Assembly: GCA_012646185.1 (NCBI GenBank)
Contig: GCA_012646185.1_4706.1
Strand: one strand, 5' to 3'
DNA: 64,000 nt
DNA from: a phage
This document shows, piece after piece, positions 360 to 39,311 of the stretch. The position numbers were made by a program, and so were the translations under genes. Numbering within the stretch: position 1 is the first letter of the stretch; each line of letters opens with the position of its first letter. The notes beneath the pieces were generated by a model, which saw nothing but the letters and a program-made list of their open reading frames with translations, did no database searches and was not told the origin of the DNA.

Positions 360-908
360 TTATTTCACAAGAACAGCGAATTCGAGAACATAAATAGCTT
401 CATCGTCCATCGGATTTGTTGTGGTATAACCAGCGAAGCAATAGCCCATATCCACGATAAACTCGCTAAGTTTATCGATGACTGATGCCCCGATACGATC
501 GTCAACAGACAGGCGACATTTACGGGTTATGTTTTGCCCGCGAGGAACGCCAGCTAACACGGATAGGAAATGTACGATCCGGTTATTGGTTGCGAACTGC
601 ATGTAATCATCGTAGTACTTAAGGTCTTTCATCGCAGACTCTACCGTCATACGACGACCAGGTGACACATACTCAGAATAAGAATAAGCTGCGATCGTAC
701 GACGATCTTCAGTAAGGTAAGTATTCCCTTCGGGATGATAACTCTCGACTGTTCCGTCTTCATGGGTGACGGTCACAACAGGTGCGCCGTACTCATCGCG
801 ACCGAAATCAATTTTACATTTATCCGAAAGCGGTAGAACCGTACAAGGCTTTGCACTGTTCTCATCAGGGAGATCGTAACCACTCATCATTTTCAAGAAC
901 ATAGACAT
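360..908 (-). CDS. hypothetical protein, paralog of 993-1526
   Basis: 182-aa ORF; N-terminal half shares NAKP, VTH.D, GN.Y, IA.Y.YS with the neighbouring ORF. Confidence 0.5.
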   Translation of the reverse strand: MSMFLKMMSGYDLPDENSAKPCTVLPLSDKCKIDFGRDEYGAPVVTVTHEDGTVESYHPEGNTYLTEDRRTIAAYSYSEYVSPGRRMTVESAMKDLKYYDDYMQFATNNRIVHFLSVLAGVPRGQNITRKCRLSVDDRIGASVIDKLSEFIVDMGYCFAGYTTTNPMDDEAIYVLEFAVLVK

Positions 909-992
909 AATAGAACCTCATGATAATAGATAATAGAAATGATAGATAGTACAACAAATTGAGGGGTATTATCCCACCCCTCGTAGGGATTA

Positions 993-1526
993 CTACTTAA
1001 CGATCGCGATGATTTTGCCACCCGCACCGGCGTAATATGCCGTTAACTTACCAGTAAACAACTCTTGTAAAAGACGATTTACGTTACTAACAAAATTAGG
1101 ATTGTCCGATTTTACAAAATCGATGTTTCGCGTTTGTTTTATATCACGATCGATTAAACGGATTTCCAACAACGCACAAATAAGGCGATCGTCGAGTTTA
1201 CCACTCGCATCCAGCACTTCCCCATACTTCGTAGCACGGACGTCCGCATACATACGGTCAACATCATCCTTCCCAAAACCACAGGAATAGGCATACGTTG
1301 CGATGGTGTTACCATTGTCCATCACATAAACGTTACCACCTGGGTAATCGATAAATCGTTGATCCTTATCACCATGAGTGACGAACTCCAGTGTCGGTCT
1401 ACCTAGTGAATCACGATTGAATTCGATAGTTGTCAAACGGTCAGGCACCACATGTAACGTAAACGGTTTTGCATTGTTACGATCGCTAGTATCGCAGTTA
1501 CCCATTACTTTTACGATAACACTCAT
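993..1526 (-). CDS. hypothetical protein, paralog of 360-908
   Basis: 177-aa ORF; tandem paralog, stem-loop gaggggt/acccctc downstream at 961-981. Confidence 0.5.
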   Translation of the reverse strand: MSVIVKVMGNCDTSDRNNAKPFTLHVVPDRLTTIEFNRDSLGRPTLEFVTHGDKDQRFIDYPGGNVYVMDNGNTIATYAYSCGFGKDDVDRMYADVRATKYGEVLDASGKLDDRLICALLEIRLIDRDIKQTRNIDFVKSDNPNFVSNVNRLLQELFTGKLTAYYAGAGGKIIAIVK

Positions 1527-1600
1527 GTTTTATTCCTTAGTAGTCCTAGTAGTAGTATTGAGGAATTTCACCTCATTAGATAGTCTATTTTGGTAATGTT

Positions 1601-1900
1601 TTACTGAAACAAGACATTAAATTCGACAAGATACCCATCGGATCTATCGCCCCGATAACGGTTGCAGAAAACACCGAATTTCATCAAGAACTCACATAGC
1701 TCTTCGGCTTTGTATAACGGAATACGATTTTCGTCGAGCAGAGGGCAACTATGGCTAACCCGCTCCGACGAATCAACGCAACACAAATAAAGAAGGAACC
1801 GAACAATAGCTCGGTTCTTAGTAAAGCTCTCGAATTCACCCACAGTTCTGAACTCATCGAGGAGCTTTGTCGTTTTCTTCAATCGTTCACGATCGAGCAT
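1601..1900 (-). CDS. hypothetical protein
   Basis: 99-aa ORF. Confidence 0.4.
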   Translation of the reverse strand: MLDRERLKKTTKLLDEFRTVGEFESFTKNRAIVRFLLYLCCVDSSERVSHSCPLLDENRIPLYKAEELCEFLMKFGVFCNRYRGDRSDGYLVEFNVLFQ

Positions 1901-9456: not shown

Positions 9457-10143
9457 TTAACACATGATTTCACCATGTTTCTTTTCAACATACGTATAAA
9501 CGTCATCCAAATAAGCAATGAGTTTATCACGATCCGCACAGAGCGATTTAATCACCGCAATCTCTTTCATATAAAGCTGCTGACCTAACGCCGGATACGT
9601 AATCCATGCGTAGCCGTCAGGCGCAAATTTAGAAATAAGATAATCAGCGGTTTCCTGTAATGCGAACTCTTTACTCATCTGGCCGTAACGATGTTCGATT
9701 GCACGGATACCAAAACGTTCGTTATCAAGACGACCCATATCCGCCAAACGAAGCACCTGAGAAGCAACCGAGCTACGTGGACCAGAGTACGAGGCACGAT
9801 GTTCAGCAATAAGTACGCGTATCTCCTCGATGTCCTCCGGTGTGAAAATATGCTGCTCGTTACGAAGCAGGATAACCGATGCACGAATACCCCCGATAAG
9901 GTGGTGGTATGTTCTGTTTTCGTGGCAAGCGATATCATGCATAAAAGCAGCGGTTAATAGACGACGACGTTCCGTGGGTCTGATGATCCCAACCACATCA
10001 GCAAGTTCATTTGCCAGTTCAACAACAGCAAGCACATGTTCTTCTTGATGTGCAAGATCGTTCTTCCGAATATTTTCAATTACTTCAGCGCGTGTTTCCT
10101 GAGATAAGAAATTTAAACAATCCAACGAATATAAAGATTTCAT
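9457..10143 (-). CDS. putative HD-domain phosphohydrolase
   Basis: 228-aa ORF; H...HD signature (HQEEHVLAV...AAFMHDIACHE). Confidence 0.5.
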   Translation of the reverse strand: MKSLYSLDCLNFLSQETRAEVIENIRKNDLAHQEEHVLAVVELANELADVVGIIRPTERRRLLTAAFMHDIACHENRTYHHLIGGIRASVILLRNEQHIFTPEDIEEIRVLIAEHRASYSGPRSSVASQVLRLADMGRLDNERFGIRAIEHRYGQMSKEFALQETADYLISKFAPDGYAWITYPALGQQLYMKEIAVIKSLCADRDKLIAYLDDVYTYVEKKHGEIMC

Positions 10144-10184: not shown

Positions 10185-10208
10185 CACGTAAGTAATATAG
10201 CCGTGAAA
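10185..10208 (-). promoter_or_regulatory. early-promoter-like motif (minus-strand TTTCACGGCTATATTACTTACGTG)
   Basis: Contains TATATTAC; about 45 nt upstream of gene 9457-10143; one of four near-identical copies. Confidence 0.5.
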
Positions 10209-26550: not shown

Positions 26551-28137
26551 TTATTTTTTTCCTCTTAAATTTACTACGTGTTCATTTAATCGAACAACTA
26601 ATTGCACAAGCTGCTGACGGATATCTGCTGGACAAAGCATCAATCCTTTACGGTCAGCTGGGACTTTCTCAAGGATTTCCGGGCCTGCTGCTGAAACATC
26701 CCAGTCCCATTCACAAAACGCATCGGCCACCATGTTAATACCGACAACCGGTAAAGTTGTACGTTCATCTTCATACATGGCGTGTGGATACAATTTATTG
26801 ACAGTAATGATCTCCTGTGGTTTTAATTGGTGGATAATCTGATAAACATCGTCGCGTTTGACCTGGATACCTACGGTCAGCGCTGCCAGTTGAGGAAAAC
26901 CCCAATGGTCTAATAAGCAAGCTGCAATCGCTAACGCTTTTGCTTGATGCACGGCTTCAATCGGTGCCAGACTTCTCGCCGGAAGATGGCTATCAAGCAA
27001 CCATTGTGCCAGTGCTCGGCATCCACGGTTGATTGGTTTTAACTCAACGGTGTCATCATGTTTAGCGTACGTGTATCCGTCGTAACGTTTTGCGATACGC
27101 GCATACATGTCTTCAACTTTACCGTAAGGTGCCGTTTCGTCGACGTCGTGCAACACACGTTCCATCTGGGTAAGATACGCGATATCAAGAATGAGTACAC
27201 GCGGTGAACGTTTATCTTTCACCATCAACGCATCAATCACGCCTTGACTGTCTTCATCTTGCGCGTTCCCTCGTGGGGTTTTCTCACGAATCGGTCCGCT
27301 GAAACGTCGTTCCGTACAAAGGTTATTCACATAGCTAAAGATCAGTGTTACCAGATGCGTACAACTCACCAACACCCCATCTTTAACGACAGGCTGTACG
27401 GCTTGGTCCAAGTCGCGTACGGCGAGACGGCGGACGATGGCTTGTGAACGCAACCAGCCGGGCACTTTCTCCGTCGACATGTAATCCACGGTCATCGACA
27501 GCGTGATCTTTTTATCACCCGTCTGTGCGCGGATATAGTCTTCCAGTCGGTCGTAAGCGGCGATATCGTGAATGCGTGTTTTATACATCAACGACATAGC
27601 CACTTCTTCTTTACGAACCGTTCCGTACGTTTTCCCTGCGTCAATCAGAAACTCTGCCCAAATCGGCACCATCAGACGGACGTAGATCGCTAACGCCGTT
27701 AACTCAACGTAATCATTTCGTAAATAGGTTTTCTCAGGAATATCATCCTCACCTAATGTTGTTTTCATGTCCGGCGGTAATTTTACCCAACCCGGGGTAT
27801 TACACAACGCCAGAATCTCTTCGTACACAACCGGTTTGTAAATTTCACCAACAGCGCGACTCAACTCCTCCATTTGTTGTTGTGGAGCAATGTAGTTATC
27901 CATCGCTTCACGTGCTTTAACGAACCCTTCGAAGATGTCGTCAATTCGACGTGGGTTCTTTTGTTCTATCCAGGCGAGATACTTGTTAATCTCCCGCATC
28001 TGATTGCTAGCCATATCCCCATCAATCTTGATGTAACCCTGACCTGAAAATTCCACAGTACGTCCATCACGGTGTTTGATGAGATAGTGATCCAGCTTTT
28101 CTTTTCCTTGCGTCGTAATGACGGGCACTATGTGCAT
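26551..28137 (-). CDS. hypothetical protein
   Basis: Start moved to internal ATG (MHIVPVITTQ); the Arg-rich N-terminal extension in the track looks non-coding; early-promoter-like motif about 60 nt upstream. Confidence 0.5.
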   Translation of the reverse strand: MHIVPVITTQGKEKLDHYLIKHRDGRTVEFSGQGYIKIDGDMASNQMREINKYLAWIEQKNPRRIDDIFEGFVKAREAMDNYIAPQQQMEELSRAVGEIYKPVVYEEILALCNTPGWVKLPPDMKTTLGEDDIPEKTYLRNDYVELTALAIYVRLMVPIWAEFLIDAGKTYGTVRKEEVAMSLMYKTRIHDIAAYDRLEDYIRAQTGDKKITLSMTVDYMSTEKVPGWLRSQAIVRRLAVRDLDQAVQPVVKDGVLVSCTHLVTLIFSYVNNLCTERRFSGPIREKTPRGNAQDEDSQGVIDALMVKDKRSPRVLILDIAYLTQMERVLHDVDETAPYGKVEDMYARIAKRYDGYTYAKHDDTVELKPINRGCRALAQWLLDSHLPARSLAPIEAVHQAKALAIAACLLDHWGFPQLAALTVGIQVKRDDVYQIIHQLKPQEIITVNKLYPHAMYEDERTTLPVVGINMVADAFCEWDWDVSAAGPEILEKVPADRKGLMLCPADIRQQLVQLVVRLNEHVVNLRGKK

Positions 28138-28186: not shown

Positions 28187-28213
28187 CCACAAAGGTAATA
28201 TAAGCGTGAATAA
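28187..28213 (-). promoter_or_regulatory. early-promoter-like motif (minus-strand ...TTATTCACGCTTATATTACCTTTGTGG)
   Basis: Contains TATATTAC; upstream of gene 26551-28137. Confidence 0.5.
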
Positions 28214-28341
28214 TTTTGGATTCCGGCTGAGTTATCGCTCAGCATGCAAGGCATCCCGCCGAAGCGAGACACCTTGCACTAACGGAAAATATTCGCGTTA
28301 CCTTCTGAATCGAAGACTCAGAATGCGATGCTAAAGCGTTA

Positions 28342-32796: not shown

Positions 32797-32914
32797 CCCG
32801 TTCTCCTCAAGCTTTTCATTTCATAGAGTGGTGGAAATTCGTAGAAAGTTACAAAAATAAAAAAGAATGGGCAGCCCCTCCCCACCCGAAGGTAGGGAGA
32901 GACCGCAAATATAC

Positions 32915-33379
32915 TTAAACCAAAGCTGCGATAACGTCGTTAACATTACGGCCTCGCAACTCTGCCGCTAAACGAATAACTTCATCCAGGGAACGGTTTG
33001 TACGAATCTTGGCCACTTTCCAATTTTCAGGATACTGTTCGAAGTTAAGCAACCAAGTCATTACCTTTGCTTGTTCCATACCGTTGAGTTTGATTGTCGT
33101 GCGCGGATTGGCTTTGAACCACTTCTTGCTCAGCTGCGCCATACGGCGAACAGGGTAAGCGTAAGCGCGAGTCCAGTCTTTGGACAGATTGTCGAGTAAT
33201 TCACAGTAGCTGTTGTCGTAGTCTTTGTTGATACGACGTAATAACCAGTTGGCGGTCATCTGATAAAGTTTATCATCTTCACGTAACCGCATACCTGCTA
33301 CTGCTAAATAAATGATAAGACCTGCGCCCAGGATGAGAGACAGGATAAACAGAATTTGGGTTTCTTGTGCTAAAGTCAT
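32915..33379 (-). CDS. membrane-anchored protein (single N-terminal TM helix)
   Basis: 154-aa ORF; hydrophobic stretch ILFILSLILGAGLIIYLAVAG; early-promoter-like motif about 90 nt upstream. Confidence 0.5.
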   Translation of the reverse strand: MTLAQETQILFILSLILGAGLIIYLAVAGMRLREDDKLYQMTANWLLRRINKDYDNSYCELLDNLSKDWTRAYAYPVRRMAQLSKKWFKANPRTTIKLNGMEQAKVMTWLLNFEQYPENWKVAKIRTNRSLDEVIRLAAELRGRNVNDVIAALV

Positions 33380-33463
33380 TTTACTATCCTCGGATTTCGT
33401 TAGGATTTAATTTCCAATATAAGGACAATGTGATATGCCTTATACAGTCGATTGATGTTGTAC

Positions 33464-33490
33464 ATCACTTAAGTAATATAGCCGTGAAAA
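33464..33490 (-). promoter_or_regulatory. early-promoter-like motif (minus-strand TTTTTCACGGCTATATTACTTAAGTG)
   Basis: Contains TATATTAC; near-identical to the copy at 10185-10208. Confidence 0.5.
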
Positions 33491-35257: not shown

Positions 35258-35617
35258 CAAAATCTTCAGTATGAATCGCTACTTCATACCCGCAGCATTA
35301 CCTGCAGCTCCTGGTGTTACCAGGATGTTGAGAGTATATCATGCCCATATTCCAAATGGAACGTAGGACTTCCGCGCTGGATCTCGCTTGAGACCACTTA
35401 CTCGTTGAACGTTCTCCTAAACGGAGCTTCGCTGCTGATTGGACATTGTTACGTACGGTAGGCGTCCCATTAAAGGGATTTTCATTGAAGCCGCGTACAT
35501 CCGTTACCTTGTTTCTACCTTATCGGTTCCTCTTACGAGGCGTAACGGCTTTAGCCTATTCCAGCAATTCACGGAATGCATATTCTCCTTTTCAGGAGAT
35601 AAGGCCATGGCTCTGGC
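35258..35617 (-). ncRNA. putative self-splicing intron 1 (ORF-less, group I-like), boundaries approximate
   Basis: About 360-nt hairpin-rich sequence between DFDGD codons and resumption of beta-prime homology; tandem relative of intron 2. Confidence 0.5.
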
Positions 35618-35632
35618 ATCACCGTCAAAGTC
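35618..35632 (-). CDS. RNA polymerase beta-prime micro-exon encoding DFDGD (proposed)
   Basis: Minus-strand codons GAC TTT GAC GGT GAT; flanked by the two intron copies; exon 1 ends ...GYNA. Confidence 0.5.
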
Positions 35633-35982
35633 CACATATCTTCAGTATGAATCGCTACTTCATACCCGCAGCATTACCTGCAGCTCCTGGTGTTACCAGG
35701 ACGGAGAGATCATCTCATCACCCACGAAGGGTGTTCCGCGCTACCCTCAGCGAATTCGAGGGACATGATCGTTGAACCTTCCACCGATAATCGGTGGCTA
35801 GGCTGCTGATTAAACATTGTACGTTGGGGTGGCATCCTGGTTCAGGACTGTCGTTGAAGCCTCCCAACATCCACTCACTTATTTCCGCCTTATCGGCTCC
35901 CATAAGGGCAGAGTGGCTTTAGCCCGTCTCAGCAATTCACGGAATTCAAGCTCTTCCTTTCAGAAGGCAGGGCCTCATCTGA
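35633..35982 (-). ncRNA. putative self-splicing intron 2 (ORF-less, group I-like), boundaries approximate
   Basis: Follows the codon for Ala of ...KGYNA (exon ends in U); RNA ends in G just before GAC of DFDGD; track ORF reads 17 codons into it then stops. Confidence 0.5.
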
Positions 35983-37233
35983 AGCATTGTATCCCTTAAG
36001 GATCATCACGCTTAACCCGATGGTGTTATCCTGCGGATCGCGTTTAACCTTGGTGATTTCAAGACATTGGTTACTGCTTCGGTCAAGTGATGGGTTTCGA
36101 ACAAAGCCGCACACAATCCCATCGAACGGCGTATCAGCAATAAGCTCATCGTGCAGCTCGCTCATCATCGGATGATAATTACGGACATGTTCCGCAACGA
36201 ACGCACGCGCTGCTCTCGGTGAGTAACCACGATGGAATAACTTGGATTGGATATGTTCTTTATTGGTTAAAGTAAATGGTGCGTATGGGAAATGCAGATG
36301 ATAATAACGATGGTTCGCTGTTATCGAACTGATTACGGTACGCGTGGTGAATGGATGTAATGTACCTAATATGTTTTTACGTGTAATACCTTTCTTCTTA
36401 CCGATGAACTCATCGAAAATCGCTGCGTGGTATTGCAGTAGCTTCAATTGCACTTTCGCCATCCAGTTTTCTTTCTTTCTGGCGCTCAAAGGTGTTGTTG
36501 GATGATAGATACTGTTCAACGTACCAATAGCATCGATCGCACCTTCCATTTTGCTATCCGCATAACGACCGGTCGGCGTATTTTCGATAACGAACATCAT
36601 GGCTGCAGGAAAGCTGATATACTGACTGAAGAACTTATCACGATGGATACGGATGAATTCTCGTAGCGTGTCAACTTTCTCCATGTTCTTCGGTCCACGT
36701 AACGTCGGTCCTTTATACAAGATCTCCATGATGCGATCGAAGTTCTGTATAAAGCTATTTACGCCACGCCGTATCCCGAATACATCGAATTGCTGCTCCA
36801 GATAGTTCTTGAGTTCGATGGGTCGTTTTACATTTGGACGGTAACTGGCATCAATGAGCCACGTCATCGTTTCAAAGCTTTTGATATTCAACTCGCTTGC
36901 CAGCACGAGATGGACCAACGGGTTAATGAACGCATCGATTCCTTCAGGAACGCGCGCCCAAACCGTCGAACGAATCTCTTGTTCTGCTGGGTAGGTTACA
37001 ACCGTTTTACAGTTTGGACACACCGTGCCGAGTAGCTCACCACGATTGTAGAAACCACAACCACATTGTGGTGTGATATCCAACGTATCGCTGGAGTAAA
37101 CACGGGTGATAAAACTGTTTAATTTCTTCTTCTCTTCGACGACTTTTGTATCGTAATCATTCAACAAAATCGGCGTGAAAGGAAGTTCTGCGAGCTGTCT
37201 ATCGAAACTCACGATATCGAGCATGATGGCCAT
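35983..37233 (-). CDS. RNA polymerase beta-prime N-terminal subunit, exon 1
   Basis: Zn-finger CGCGFYNRGELLGTVCPNCKTVV (compare CxCGKY...C..CGVEV); NPSLDRSS (compare NRQPSLHK / NRAPTLHR); IGLSVMILKGYNA (compare LNLSVTSPYNA) immediately before the missing DFDGD. Confidence 0.65.
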
Positions 37234-37275
37234 GGGGTATCTCCTACAAATGAAAAAGAACGTTAGGACGTATAA

Positions 37276-37299
37276 GGGAGGGAGGTTGCCCTCCCTCCC
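37276..37299 (-). terminator. GC-rich stem-loop gggagggagg-ttgc-cctccctccc between chimallin candidate and beta-prime gene
   Basis: Perfect 10-bp inverted repeat. Confidence 0.45.
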
Positions 37300-37325: not shown

Positions 37326-39221
37326 TTAGAACAGGTTGAATGCCCCACCCATGTTGTTAACGCCAACATTCGGACGATCGCTACGTGCGTAGATGTTACC
37401 GGAGATGTTACCCAGACCACGAGCACGTGCTGCCATGTTACCACGAACAGCGGTACCTGCCAGATGCTGGATGTTCTCAGGACGGATGGTGAAGCCAGCA
37501 TCAGCCGCAGCTTCGATCAGCGCCTGCAGTGCTAACGGATCGAAGTCGTAACGCATTGCCCAGCCGGTTTGTTCCCAGCTACCAGACAGAACACGATCGA
37601 TGATTTCGTGACGAGCGACAACACGCTGAGACATCGTCATATCGGTACGGTCGAAGCTGTCTTCCCAAGCTTCTACGGTATCCGGGTTAGTGATGTTCAT
37701 CATGTACAGATCGTCCATATCACGAATATCGTGACGGTGACCATCCTGGTGGTTGTAGTAACCCAGCGGGATACGGTTACCGGTAGCGTAGACCAGCGGT
37801 TGGCCGTATTGATATTTCTTGCTGAAGCAACCCAGGGTAGTATCATCGAAGGCACGGTAAAGTGCTTTGTAGCCTTCAGAGACTTCCTGAACTTTACCTT
37901 CAACATTACCCGTATAGATCTTCTCAGCCGCCGGGATCATACGCAGCAGCCAGCTGTATTCGCCTTCTTCCGGTACGTCGATAGAAATCAGCAGAGACGG
38001 ATACAGAACCTGTTGCAGGAACTTGTAAATCTGCTCGTTGGTTTGCGTAGACAGATCCAGCGGTGCAGTCACTTCAGGATCCAGCACCATCGCCAGAGCA
38101 CCTGGGTTATGCGGACCAATACCACGAGCCGCGTTGCTGATTAAAGACTGTGCCCATGCCATGCCGCTGTTCAGCGTAGCGATGGTACCAATCAGACCCA
38201 GCACGAAGCTGTTCGGTGTGAACGCATCCAGCTCCAGCGGGTAAGCGCTGGTCATCACGTAACGCGGCTGGTATTGTACAGTCGGCGGTACCGGATAGCC
38301 GTTAACCAGAACAGGGCCTTGGTTGAAGGTCGGGTTCTGCGGGCTGTAGGTCAGGTCGATGTAACCGGTGGTGGCGACCAGACGCTGTTGACTATCGTAA
38401 TCGCTCATCGCTTGACGGATGCGGTTAGAGATAGTTACAGTGATGTCAGAACGCACAGGGTTACCAACAATATCACTGTCCTGCATACCGCTGGTGTTGT
38501 ACTGAACGCTGCTGATTGGCTGATCGCTTGCCATCATGCCCAGGTTGAACTGCGGCAGACCCAGTTTATCACCGAGACGGATTTCGATTGCGGTCTGGAT
38601 TGCGTTATCTGCAGCAGACAGCAGGGTGGTTGCCAGATGCGCAGATTCAGCGGTGATTTCATTGGTCACCACAGCCAGACCAGCGATACGAACAGTACCG
38701 TTAGACTTACCGCCAATAGCTGAATACATTGCCGCCATGACTTCGTTGATGAACGTACCGTTCAGGTTATCAACCCAGGTACGCGGTACCAGAATGTTAC
38801 CATGCGGACCTTGTTCTTCACGACGCGGCAGCGGAGCCAGACCAGCAACCAGCGGCAGGACGTAACCGAAGAAGTGGTTATGATCACCAACTTTTGCACC
38901 GCTCATAACAACCAGGGTCGGATACGGTACGCTGTACTGGTTCGGGTCAACCGCAACAAAGATGAAGTCGTCTTTGAACTGGGTATCTTCCAGATATTTC
39001 TCCATCAGACGACGGAGATTCAGTACCTGCTCGGAGCCGGTATTACGGCTGATACGACGGCTCAGTGTACGGTTGATCGTACGCATCGTATGAGTTACTT
39101 TAGGACGGTCGGCAAAATCTGCAGCGGTTTCCAGCGCCTCATCAGCACGTTGTGCGGTGCGGGTTTCAGCTGCACGAATTTCTACATTATCGTTACCGTT
39201 ATTACGTACGTCTAAGCCCAT
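37326..39221 (-). CDS. chmA: candidate phage-nucleus shell protein (chimallin); alternative is a major virion structural protein
   Basis: 631-aa ORF directly upstream of the beta-prime N-terminal gene (same order as phiKZ gp54-gp55); early-promoter motif 70 nt upstream; extended charged N-terminal tail. Confidence 0.45.
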   Translation of the reverse strand: MGLDVRNNGNDNVEIRAAETRTAQRADEALETAADFADRPKVTHTMRTINRTLSRRISRNTGSEQVLNLRRLMEKYLEDTQFKDDFIFVAVDPNQYSVPYPTLVVMSGAKVGDHNHFFGYVLPLVAGLAPLPRREEQGPHGNILVPRTWVDNLNGTFINEVMAAMYSAIGGKSNGTVRIAGLAVVTNEITAESAHLATTLLSAADNAIQTAIEIRLGDKLGLPQFNLGMMASDQPISSVQYNTSGMQDSDIVGNPVRSDITVTISNRIRQAMSDYDSQQRLVATTGYIDLTYSPQNPTFNQGPVLVNGYPVPPTVQYQPRYVMTSAYPLELDAFTPNSFVLGLIGTIATLNSGMAWAQSLISNAARGIGPHNPGALAMVLDPEVTAPLDLSTQTNEQIYKFLQQVLYPSLLISIDVPEEGEYSWLLRMIPAAEKIYTGNVEGKVQEVSEGYKALYRAFDDTTLGCFSKKYQYGQPLVYATGNRIPLGYYNHQDGHRHDIRDMDDLYMMNITNPDTVEAWEDSFDRTDMTMSQRVVARHEIIDRVLSGSWEQTGWAMRYDFDPLALQALIEAAADAGFTIRPENIQHLAGTAVRGNMAARARGLGNISGNIYARSDRPNVGVNNMGGAFNLF

Positions 39222-39283: not shown

Positions 39284-39311
39284 ATTCACCTAGGTAATAT
39301 AACCCTGAAAT
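39284..39311 (-). promoter_or_regulatory. early-promoter-like motif (minus-strand ATTTCAGGGTTATATTACCTAGGTG)
   Basis: Contains TATATTAC; upstream of 37326-39221; palindrome AATGACGTCATT at 39252-39263 in the leader. Confidence 0.5.

Follow-up and report, generated by a model that had tools for sequence, protein, structure and literature searches.

gp182, a predicted early membrane protein of Goslar-like nucleus-forming jumbo phages

What does a short gene directly behind a strong early-promoter-like motif contribute to a phage infection? The question is raised by a locus in the 64,000-nt phage contig GCA_012646185.1_4706.1 (NCBI GenBank assembly GCA_012646185.1), the whole of which we refer to as the window. 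A preliminary description had proposed that a gene at 32915-33379 encodes a protein with a single N-terminal transmembrane (TM) helix, lies directly downstream of one of four such motifs and may specify an early membrane-targeted effector. We found that an early membrane protein is supported by the sequence of the locus, and that the gene, the counterpart of gp182 in Escherichia phage vB_EcoM_Goslar, forms together with its own promoter, leader and terminator what appears to be an early transcription unit complete in itself, in a nucleus-forming jumbo phage of the Goslar type. The effector role is a guess that draws on nothing beyond the architecture of the protein.

The gp182 gene and its transcription unit

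A 2-kb probe around the gene is 97% identical over its full length to Goslar (MK327938), a nucleus-forming jumbo phage of E. coli from the Chimalliviridae with a genome of 237 kb, and found no match beyond Goslar among 50,697 phage records; by this comparison the window phage is a close relative of Goslar. The open reading frame (ORF) starts with an ATG at 33379, ends with a TAA stop at 32915 and encodes 154 aa with 99.4% aa identity to Goslar_00182 (gp182; QBO63975), labelled "hypothetical protein" in GenBank record MK327938. The postulated gene thus exists; its strand, which had been left unstated, is the minus strand, and since the promoter lies at higher coordinates, "downstream" is correct only on that strand. 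According to the Goslar record gp182 shares its strand with, and lies about 4 kb downstream of, the gene for the beta' subunit of the non-virion RNA polymerase (nvRNAP) and Goslar_00189, which encodes the chimallin shell protein ChmA. The identity of chmA is given by a Pfam Chimallin_Phikzvirus match on its homologue in a Logan sequencing-run assembly (L002). A scan of the whole window against Rfam gave no match at gathering thresholds, and the gp182 locus is therefore free of overlap with known RNAs; a tRNA search of the window found none.

The recurrence of the promoter-like motif was borne out for an extended form of it. The core octamer TATATTAC occurs exactly four times in the window, always on the minus strand, which by itself is no significant excess (2.56 expected; four are reached in 26 of 100 shuffles). 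Aligning the contexts of the four octamers yielded the 24-nt consensus TTTCASGSYTATATTACYTNNGTG, of which the window holds four copies versus 0.03 expected (0 of 100 shuffles). With the Goslar start codon taken for gp175, each of the four copies falls into a non-coding gap; with a non-coding share of about 8.5% of the window, the chance of all four landing there is P ~5e-5. They sit 41-86 nt before start codons and on the same strand as the downstream gene, in one case chmA itself (Table 1). gp175 is one of two adjacent 528-aa ORFs and has no Pfam match. An automatic ORF call runs on to a GTG at 28272 and so crosses the motif; preferable is the start used in Goslar, 28137, which has a Shine-Dalgarno sequence, AGAGG, of its own.

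The motif has published counterparts. TATATTAC is the published phiKZ early promoter (PMC7058600 Table 2), and this core is identical in phiKZ, 201phi2-1 and the gp182 motif. The full motif TTTCACGGCTATATTACTTAAGTG agrees nearly base for base with the 201phi2-1 early consensus TTAWTAVAA_HYWTTTRARR_BTATATTACDWHDGTG (PMC7058600), its flanks matching the portion TTTRARR_BTATATTACDWHDGTG. Consensus sequences for early promoters of the virion RNA polymerase (vRNAP) have also been given for OBP and N1M2 (PMC7058600; PMC11512511), and the gp182 motif matches these as well. Like other early promoters of the Chimalliviridae the gp182 motif is intergenic, co-oriented with its gene and present before the shell gene chmA, whereas the Goslar lineage differs from phiKZ and 201phi2-1 in a fixed TTTCAsGGy block. 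The early motif lies about 10 bp upstream of the transcription start site (TSS; PMC11512511). For Goslar chmA, Armbruster et al. give a "TSS sequence" from RNA-seq at 5 minutes post infection (mpi) with its first base 91 nt upstream of the start codon (PMC10541120). This position corresponds to 39312 in the window, 2 nt before the motif at 39310..39287, and is compatible with the chmA promoter being marked by the motif, the legend being too terse to give the exact start.

All 13 related loci retain the motif upstream of gp182, identical or nearly so. We further assembled the whole Goslar genome from its record and counted both perfect and one-mismatch copies; there are only six with ≤1 mismatch, all on the minus strand, and six weaker copies have TACATTAC-type cores. 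These roughly six strong motifs compare with 28 early promoters reported for phiKZ (PMC13282480), and use of the gp182 site by the vRNAP is predicted. Since expression at 5 mpi already extends to 175 of the 249 Goslar genes (PMC10541120), early expression of gp182 is likely a priori; that so few strong motifs go together with so many active genes implies long early operons or additional promoter classes. A scan for sigma-70-type promoters found no site between gp183 and gp182, and fewer sites in the region than in shuffles, so that a promoter for the host RNA polymerase is not indicated for gp182. On these sequence grounds we assign the gp182 promoter to the conserved chimallivirus early class, in line with the proposed position of the gene behind an early-promoter-like motif.

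Between promoter and gene the predicted leader contains a hairpin. Its fold is weak (minimum free energy -17.2 kcal/mol, z -1.5). Conservation of the leader is unusually high: the hairpin arms are invariant, while the loop varies and in the metagenome contig L013 (dS ~0.7 in the gene) is shorter by 7 nt. Possibly the hairpin is an RNA element with a regulatory function. Directly after the promoter L013 has 16 additional nt, a small palindrome among them.

Downstream, a G+C-rich 16-bp stem with a UUCG loop begins nine nt past the gp182 stop; its folding energy of -31.3 kcal/mol (z -5.5) was equalled by none of 200 shuffles. One of its pairs is preserved by a C-G to U-A double change in L002, and a hairpin with U-run also follows the gp182 homologue in two contigs of a second clade described below (L003 and L004). 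A terminator scan of the interval from gp183 to the promoter found none, so read-through from the chmA/nvRNAP-beta' operon probably reaches gp182; the gp182 terminator would then probably end both the gene's own transcript and this read-through. The span 32915-33490 considered in the preliminary description takes in the promoter and leaves out the terminator stem-loop (32871-32906). Adjoining the terminator, about 25 nt before the gp181 start, is the block TTTTGTAAyTTTCTACGAATTTCCAsCACTCTATGAAAT (window 32817-32856, minus strand), almost invariant in nine aligned loci with the exceptions of y, s and the last base, which differs in L013. It contains TATG at 32825..32822; TATG is the late-promoter consensus of the phiKZ nvRNAP and overlaps the TSS (PMC7618050). 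gp181 and the genes beyond may have their middle or late promoter in this block.

Membrane helix, topology and conservation

The single N-terminal TM helix that had been described was borne out by prediction and is conserved in both clades of the family. The Kyte-Doolittle maximum over 19 residues is 2.79 at residues 9-27, and no other segment reaches 1.0. On the Hessa scale the helix sums to -3.7 and is negative in four of four family representatives, in all of which the next-best segment is at least +12.8. AlphaFold2 (AF2) predicts a helix over residues 3-51, with a predicted local distance difference test score (pLDDT) of about 80 for the first 20 residues, the only acceptable stretch. Among the ~77 likely genes of the window, gp182 alone has a strong N-terminal TM helix. 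A bitopic (single-pass) membrane protein is thus the architecture supported by these predictions.

Regarding its orientation, the flank before the helix contains no Lys or Arg and one conserved Glu in all four representatives, and the 15 residues after it contain one to three Lys or Arg. The remaining domain of ~125 residues is basic, with 23 Lys and Arg versus 15 Asp and Glu and a pI of ~9.8 in the window protein; across the four representatives the soluble part has 18-23 basic versus 9-15 acidic residues, and it holds no conserved cysteine or cysteine pair. The positive-inside rule is established knowledge on the topology of membrane proteins, and applied to these flanks it predicts an N-out/C-in arrangement, with the acidic N-tail translocated and the domain in the cytoplasm. 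Both AF2 runs give helices throughout at a pLDDT of ~40-55, from which the domain is, on a weak prediction, probably all-helical.

We compared gp182 across ten Goslar-like loci, drawn from the Logan assembly L002, IMG/VR (L005-L007) and metagenome contigs (L008-L013), and found dN/dS values of 0.01-0.2, indicating strong purifying selection. Relative to L013 there are 46 synonymous and eight non-synonymous differences (dS ~0.7). Inside the blocks conserved between the two clades of the family there are synonymous differences, so the constraint acts on the protein. Together with the preserved unit, this marks gp182 as a genuine, functional and conserved gene.

The family is small. Searching 1.84 billion representative proteins with phmmer returned one true distant homologue, P0003 (157 aa, 38% identity, E 4e-18). 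A further match, the 2368-aa animal SRCR/Ig-repeat protein P0004, was rejected as spurious because its score is the sum of 15 weak repeats. Three word-index/profile searches, covering 5.8 billion proteins, found no family members beyond five clusters, which fall into the Goslar clade and a second clade (P0003, P0005 and P0006) about 37% identical to it. The N-tail MT[LF][AV]QET[NQ] and the hydrophobic helix are common to both clades. A tblastn search of the 50,697 phage records found a homologue in Goslar only, IMG/VR and the metagenome contigs contributed only Goslar-like loci with 95-100% aa identity, and no copy was found in GTDB genome contigs or in complete RefSeq E. coli genomes. For the Chimalliviridae a core of 68 genes has been described (PMC11724907); by tblastn and the exhaustive protein searches gp182 is not family-wide, its homologues being confined to two closely related lineages. 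A partial copy, P0002, is labelled as a Shigella flexneri protein in NCBI, and near-identical full phage genomes of ~238 kb are present in metagenome assemblies, two of which encode a gp182 100% identical to that of the window. Goslar-like phages are mostly known from bacterial isolate assemblies and have been linked to 'persistent' infections (10.1101/2024.12.31.630880), a report that P0002 and the metagenome genomes fit.

The second-clade contigs are syntenic with Goslar gp176-gp183; neighbouring products are 43-64% identical, with gp181 at 34% and gp183 at 21%. They keep the same 24-nt promoter (851-874 in L003, 6-29 in L004), followed by a 111-aa ORFan, the gp182 homologue and the terminator, so that promoter, membrane helix and terminator are all kept in the sister lineage. 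The 111-aa gene has no relatives in the phage records and no Pfam match. L003 additionally carries three small ORFs (103, 55 and 77 aa; 1821-2965) around the gp181 homologue, between the homologues of gp182 and gp180. Absent from Goslar-like genomes, they appear hydrophobic and TM-rich by eye, an apparent local concentration of membrane-protein genes in a variable region.

Searches for a known family gave little. Pfam, PHROGs, NCBIfam and PADLOC, queried with single members and with both clades, produced sub-threshold and inconsistent matches only; matches to KdpF were set aside as reflecting the TM helix alone, and the sole PADLOC match (E 0.047, Goslar-clade member only) is to an unrelated diadenylate cyclase model. 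Sequence and profile searches of the PDB returned nothing credible, and the best Foldseek hit of the gp182 model in BFVD (E 2) is noise. Across Pfam, PHROGs, NCBIfam, PADLOC and PDB there was no homology to a known exclusion, toxicity, lysis or defence-related family. No holin or antiholin family matched, and the annotated cell-wall hydrolases Goslar_00024 and Goslar_00098 are more than 50 kb from gp182; given this distance and the early-class promoter, a lysis-cassette context with late expression is unlikely. A literature search found no paper that mentions gp182, QBO63975 or Goslar_00182.

Table 1. Features of the gp182 unit and related elements (window coordinates unless marked Goslar).
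Feature	Position	Strand	Remarks
gp182 coding sequence, stop included	32915..33379	-	ORF, Goslar match, dN/dS 0.01-0.2
Early (vRNAP type) promoter motif TTTCACGGCTATATTACTTAAGTG	33489..33466	-	24 nt; ends 86 nt before gp182 ATG
Promoter core TATATTAC	33480..33473	-	Octamer inside TTTCACGGCTATATTACTTAAGTG
Predicted 5' untranslated region, ~86 nt	33380..33465	-	TSS inferred
Leader hairpin UAUAAGG...CCUUAUA	33444..33418	-	Within gp182 5' untranslated region
Shine-Dalgarno GAGGA	33391..33387	-	7 nt before gp182 ATG
Acidic N-tail MTLAQETQ (8 residues)	33379..33356	-	Conserved; precedes TM helix
TM helix, residues 9-29, ILFILSLILGAGLIIYLAVAG	33293..33355	-	Hydropathy, Hessa sum, AF2
Most conserved block EQAKVMTWLLNxExYPxxWKVxKIR, residues 102-126	33002..33076	-	Nearly invariant between clades
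Predicted intrinsic terminator	32855..32906	-	Stem-loop 32906..32871 and U-run UUCUUUUUUAUUUUU
Sibling motif 1	10185-10208	-	Precedes HD-domain hydrolase gene 9457..10143 (Pfam HD E 5e-8)
Sibling motif 2	28188-28211	-	Precedes gp175, 528 aa, 26551..28137
Sibling motif 3	39287-39310	-	Precedes chmA 37326..39221
Six near-perfect Goslar motifs		-	Genome scan; precede Goslar_00004, 00105, 00159 (HD), 00175, 00182, 00189 (ChmA)
gp2 and gp3	Goslar 818-1770	-	N-terminal TM
gp94	Goslar 108183-108761	-	N-terminal TM

Possible roles of gp182

Small early bitopic membrane proteins of 80-190 aa with the C-terminal domain outside the cytoplasm are known from lytic phages, as exemplified by T4 Sp, T4 RI and SPO1 gp56. 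With these gp182 shares the early signal, the size range, the one N-terminal TM helix, the lineage restriction and, as proposed here, an accessory nature; it differs in having no sequence similarity to them and in a C-terminus that is predicted to be inside. The uncharacterised phiKZ gp12 (PHIKZ012, 132 aa) has the same build, with a short N-tail, a TM helix at about residues 11-29 (Kyte-Doolittle 2.52) and a charged domain, whereas no homology is detectable (hhalign probability 0.5%) and the genome neighbourhood is different. Within Goslar, gp2 (137 aa), gp3 (175 aa) and gp94 (192 aa) are likewise bitopic with a strong N-terminal TM helix, and no paralogy to gp182 was found for any of them. 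The perfect early motif in front of gp4 is upstream of gp2 and gp3, from which an annotated terminator separates it; gp182 differs from all three as the only one with a motif directly upstream and a terminator of its own.

On balance we lean, by a modest degree, towards gp182 being an accessory host-interaction factor anchored in the inner membrane, acting in takeover, exclusion or envelope interference, over a core role. An accessory role is favoured because the family is limited to two related lineages and an apparent cluster of small membrane-protein genes is seen in one of them. [quoted passage not shown] Host ribosomes would translate it in the cytoplasm, and the protein would become embedded in the inner membrane of E. 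coli, its N-tail facing outwards and its C-terminal domain on the cytoplasmic side. There the tethered basic domain could use its invariant EQAKVMTWLLN...WKV.KIR surface to bind a partner, of host or phage origin, on the membrane's inner face. Goslar-infected cells arrested at an early stage keep elongating without dividing (PMC10541120), which fits early envelope-directed functions and does not implicate gp182. Several points weigh against this accessory, C-in reading. The strong conservation, with dN/dS as low as 0.01, and the promoter class that gp182 has in common with chmA would suit a more central role equally well. The positive-inside rule is the sole basis of the N-out/C-in topology, and in the Goslar clade acidic and basic residues are equal in number over the 15 residues after the helix, giving a net charge of ~0. 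The AF2 models, with a mean pLDDT of 53 with and 49.5 without a 5-sequence alignment, are unusable past the TM helix. If the base at -91 of chmA is the true start, the legend being ambiguous, the motif would fall inside the transcript and not upstream of it. Finally, the literature search found no data on expression, localisation or phenotype of gp182.

The neutral C-flank speaks for the opposite topology (N-in/C-out), in which the helix would be a signal anchor and the ~125-aa domain would be periplasmic, blocking or sensing superinfection in the manner of T4 Sp, T4 RI and HK97 gp15. These are early, periplasm-facing phage proteins that block the entry of superinfecting DNA or sense superinfection, and a single N-terminal TM helix with a C-terminal domain of ~100 aa is generally known as their usual build. 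The Goslar clade also has A-V-A at residues 26-28, beside the end of the helix. We nevertheless consider this orientation unlikely: the distribution of Lys and Arg around the helix, none before it in any member next to the one conserved Glu and one to three after it, points the other way, the domain is strongly basic and without conserved cysteines, and the exhaustive searches found no sequence relation to such proteins. The same A-V-A could serve as a signal-peptidase site if the hydrophobic stretch were a cleavable signal peptide, removed on secretion of the protein to the periplasm. A Sec signal peptide is extremely improbable here, as there is no positive n-region (no Lys or Arg in residues 1-8), the hydrophobic core measures ~20 residues, and the A-x-A is confined to the Goslar clade, the second clade having L-Y-G, L-Y-S or M-Y-N in its place.

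With a more central function, gp182 would serve the chimallivirus infection cycle as a structural or organising component specific to its lineage, acting at the EPI vesicle or the cytoskeleton. The very strong purifying selection, the position 4 kb from chmA and nvRNAP beta', and a promoter that is one of only six near-perfect early promoters of Goslar, a set including that of chmA, speak for it, as does the finding that polysomes adjoin EPI vesicles (PMC10541120; 10.1101/2024.03.24.586471). In addition, the terms "membrane protein" and "transmembrane" are absent from those reviews of nucleus-forming or jumbo phages that were text-searched, which therefore do not discuss a membrane component encoded by the phage. 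EPI vesicles and nuclei occur, however, across the family, and gp182 was not found in other Chimalliviridae; moreover the vesicle-recruited phiKZ proteins gp14, gp16 and gp38 have no TM helix. We therefore regard such an organising role as quite improbable. We also give little credence to the proposal that gp182 is an integral protein acting on early-stage membranes, either by inserting next to or into the EPI vesicle, or by using its basic cytoplasmic domain to tie host DNA or a phage structure in the cytoplasm to the inner membrane. Very unlikely as well is a membrane-tethered DNA binder of the ribbon-helix-helix (RHH; Arc/MetJ/CopG) type, whose last ~35 residues (KVAKIRT-NRSLDEVIRLAAELRG-RN-VNDVIAALV) would dimerise and hold DNA at the membrane; the DNA would necessarily be that of the host or a plasmid, because phage DNA is enclosed. 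A basic domain agrees with DNA binding, and the cytoplasmic orientation suits it. Residues 125-150 weakly match the Pfam antitoxin TacA1 (E 0.082) and, aligned through the G-R-S/N turn, the Arc repressor in the PDB (E 0.68), and P0003 of the second clade weakly matches a relaxosome accessory family (E 0.13). All of these matches are below threshold, however; hhalign of the two-clade C-terminal profile against Arc gives a probability of 8.4%, the two-clade profile search of the PDB returns no RHH protein, the second clade lacks the turn Gly, and helix B would have just 9-11 residues.

Neighbouring elements and meaning of the finding

Two further features of the window lie between gp182 and chmA. 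Two tandem paralogous group I intron-like elements (35310-35671 and 35686-35992, both on the minus strand) are located between the gene for the N-terminal part of nvRNAP beta' (35929..37233) and a gp185-like ORF. They are below the Rfam threshold (RF00028, 27.4 and 23.1 bits versus a gathering cutoff of 50; E 1.3e-4 and 2.5e-3) and are accompanied by direct repeats ~370 nt apart, including an 81-nt pair that is 93% identical (35262-35342 and 35638-35718). Window positions 35578-35983 (406 nt) replace 1496 nt of Goslar with a NUMOD1/HNH homing endonuclease (Goslar_00186) and an annotated intron (Goslar_00187), so the window phage has an endonuclease-less allele. Just past the chmA stop there is a perfect 10-bp hairpin, GGGAGGGAGG-GCAA-CCTCCCTCCC (37270-37296, minus strand), without an immediate U-run, which could be a partial terminator, an attenuator or an RNA-stability element between the shell and polymerase genes.

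Taken by itself gp182 is a lineage-restricted orphan membrane protein behind a known promoter class, already present in GenBank as hypothetical, and as such not surprising. Nucleus-forming jumbo phages start their infection inside a lipid vesicle, and the question is how phage proteins handle host membranes in the first minutes. Among the near-perfect early promoters of Goslar, gp182 is the sole clear stand-alone membrane-protein unit, and with its small size, its strong conservation and the ease with which it can be knocked down or expressed, it is a cheap and well-defined candidate for early membrane-directed functions. If gp182 is an ordinary accessory factor of exclusion or takeover, the gain is one annotation. 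It would matter more if the protein touches the EPI vesicle or the organisation of the cell; a role at the vesicle or as an anchor, if true, would make it the first phage-made membrane component of the chimallivirus compartment system, in a lineage-specific form.

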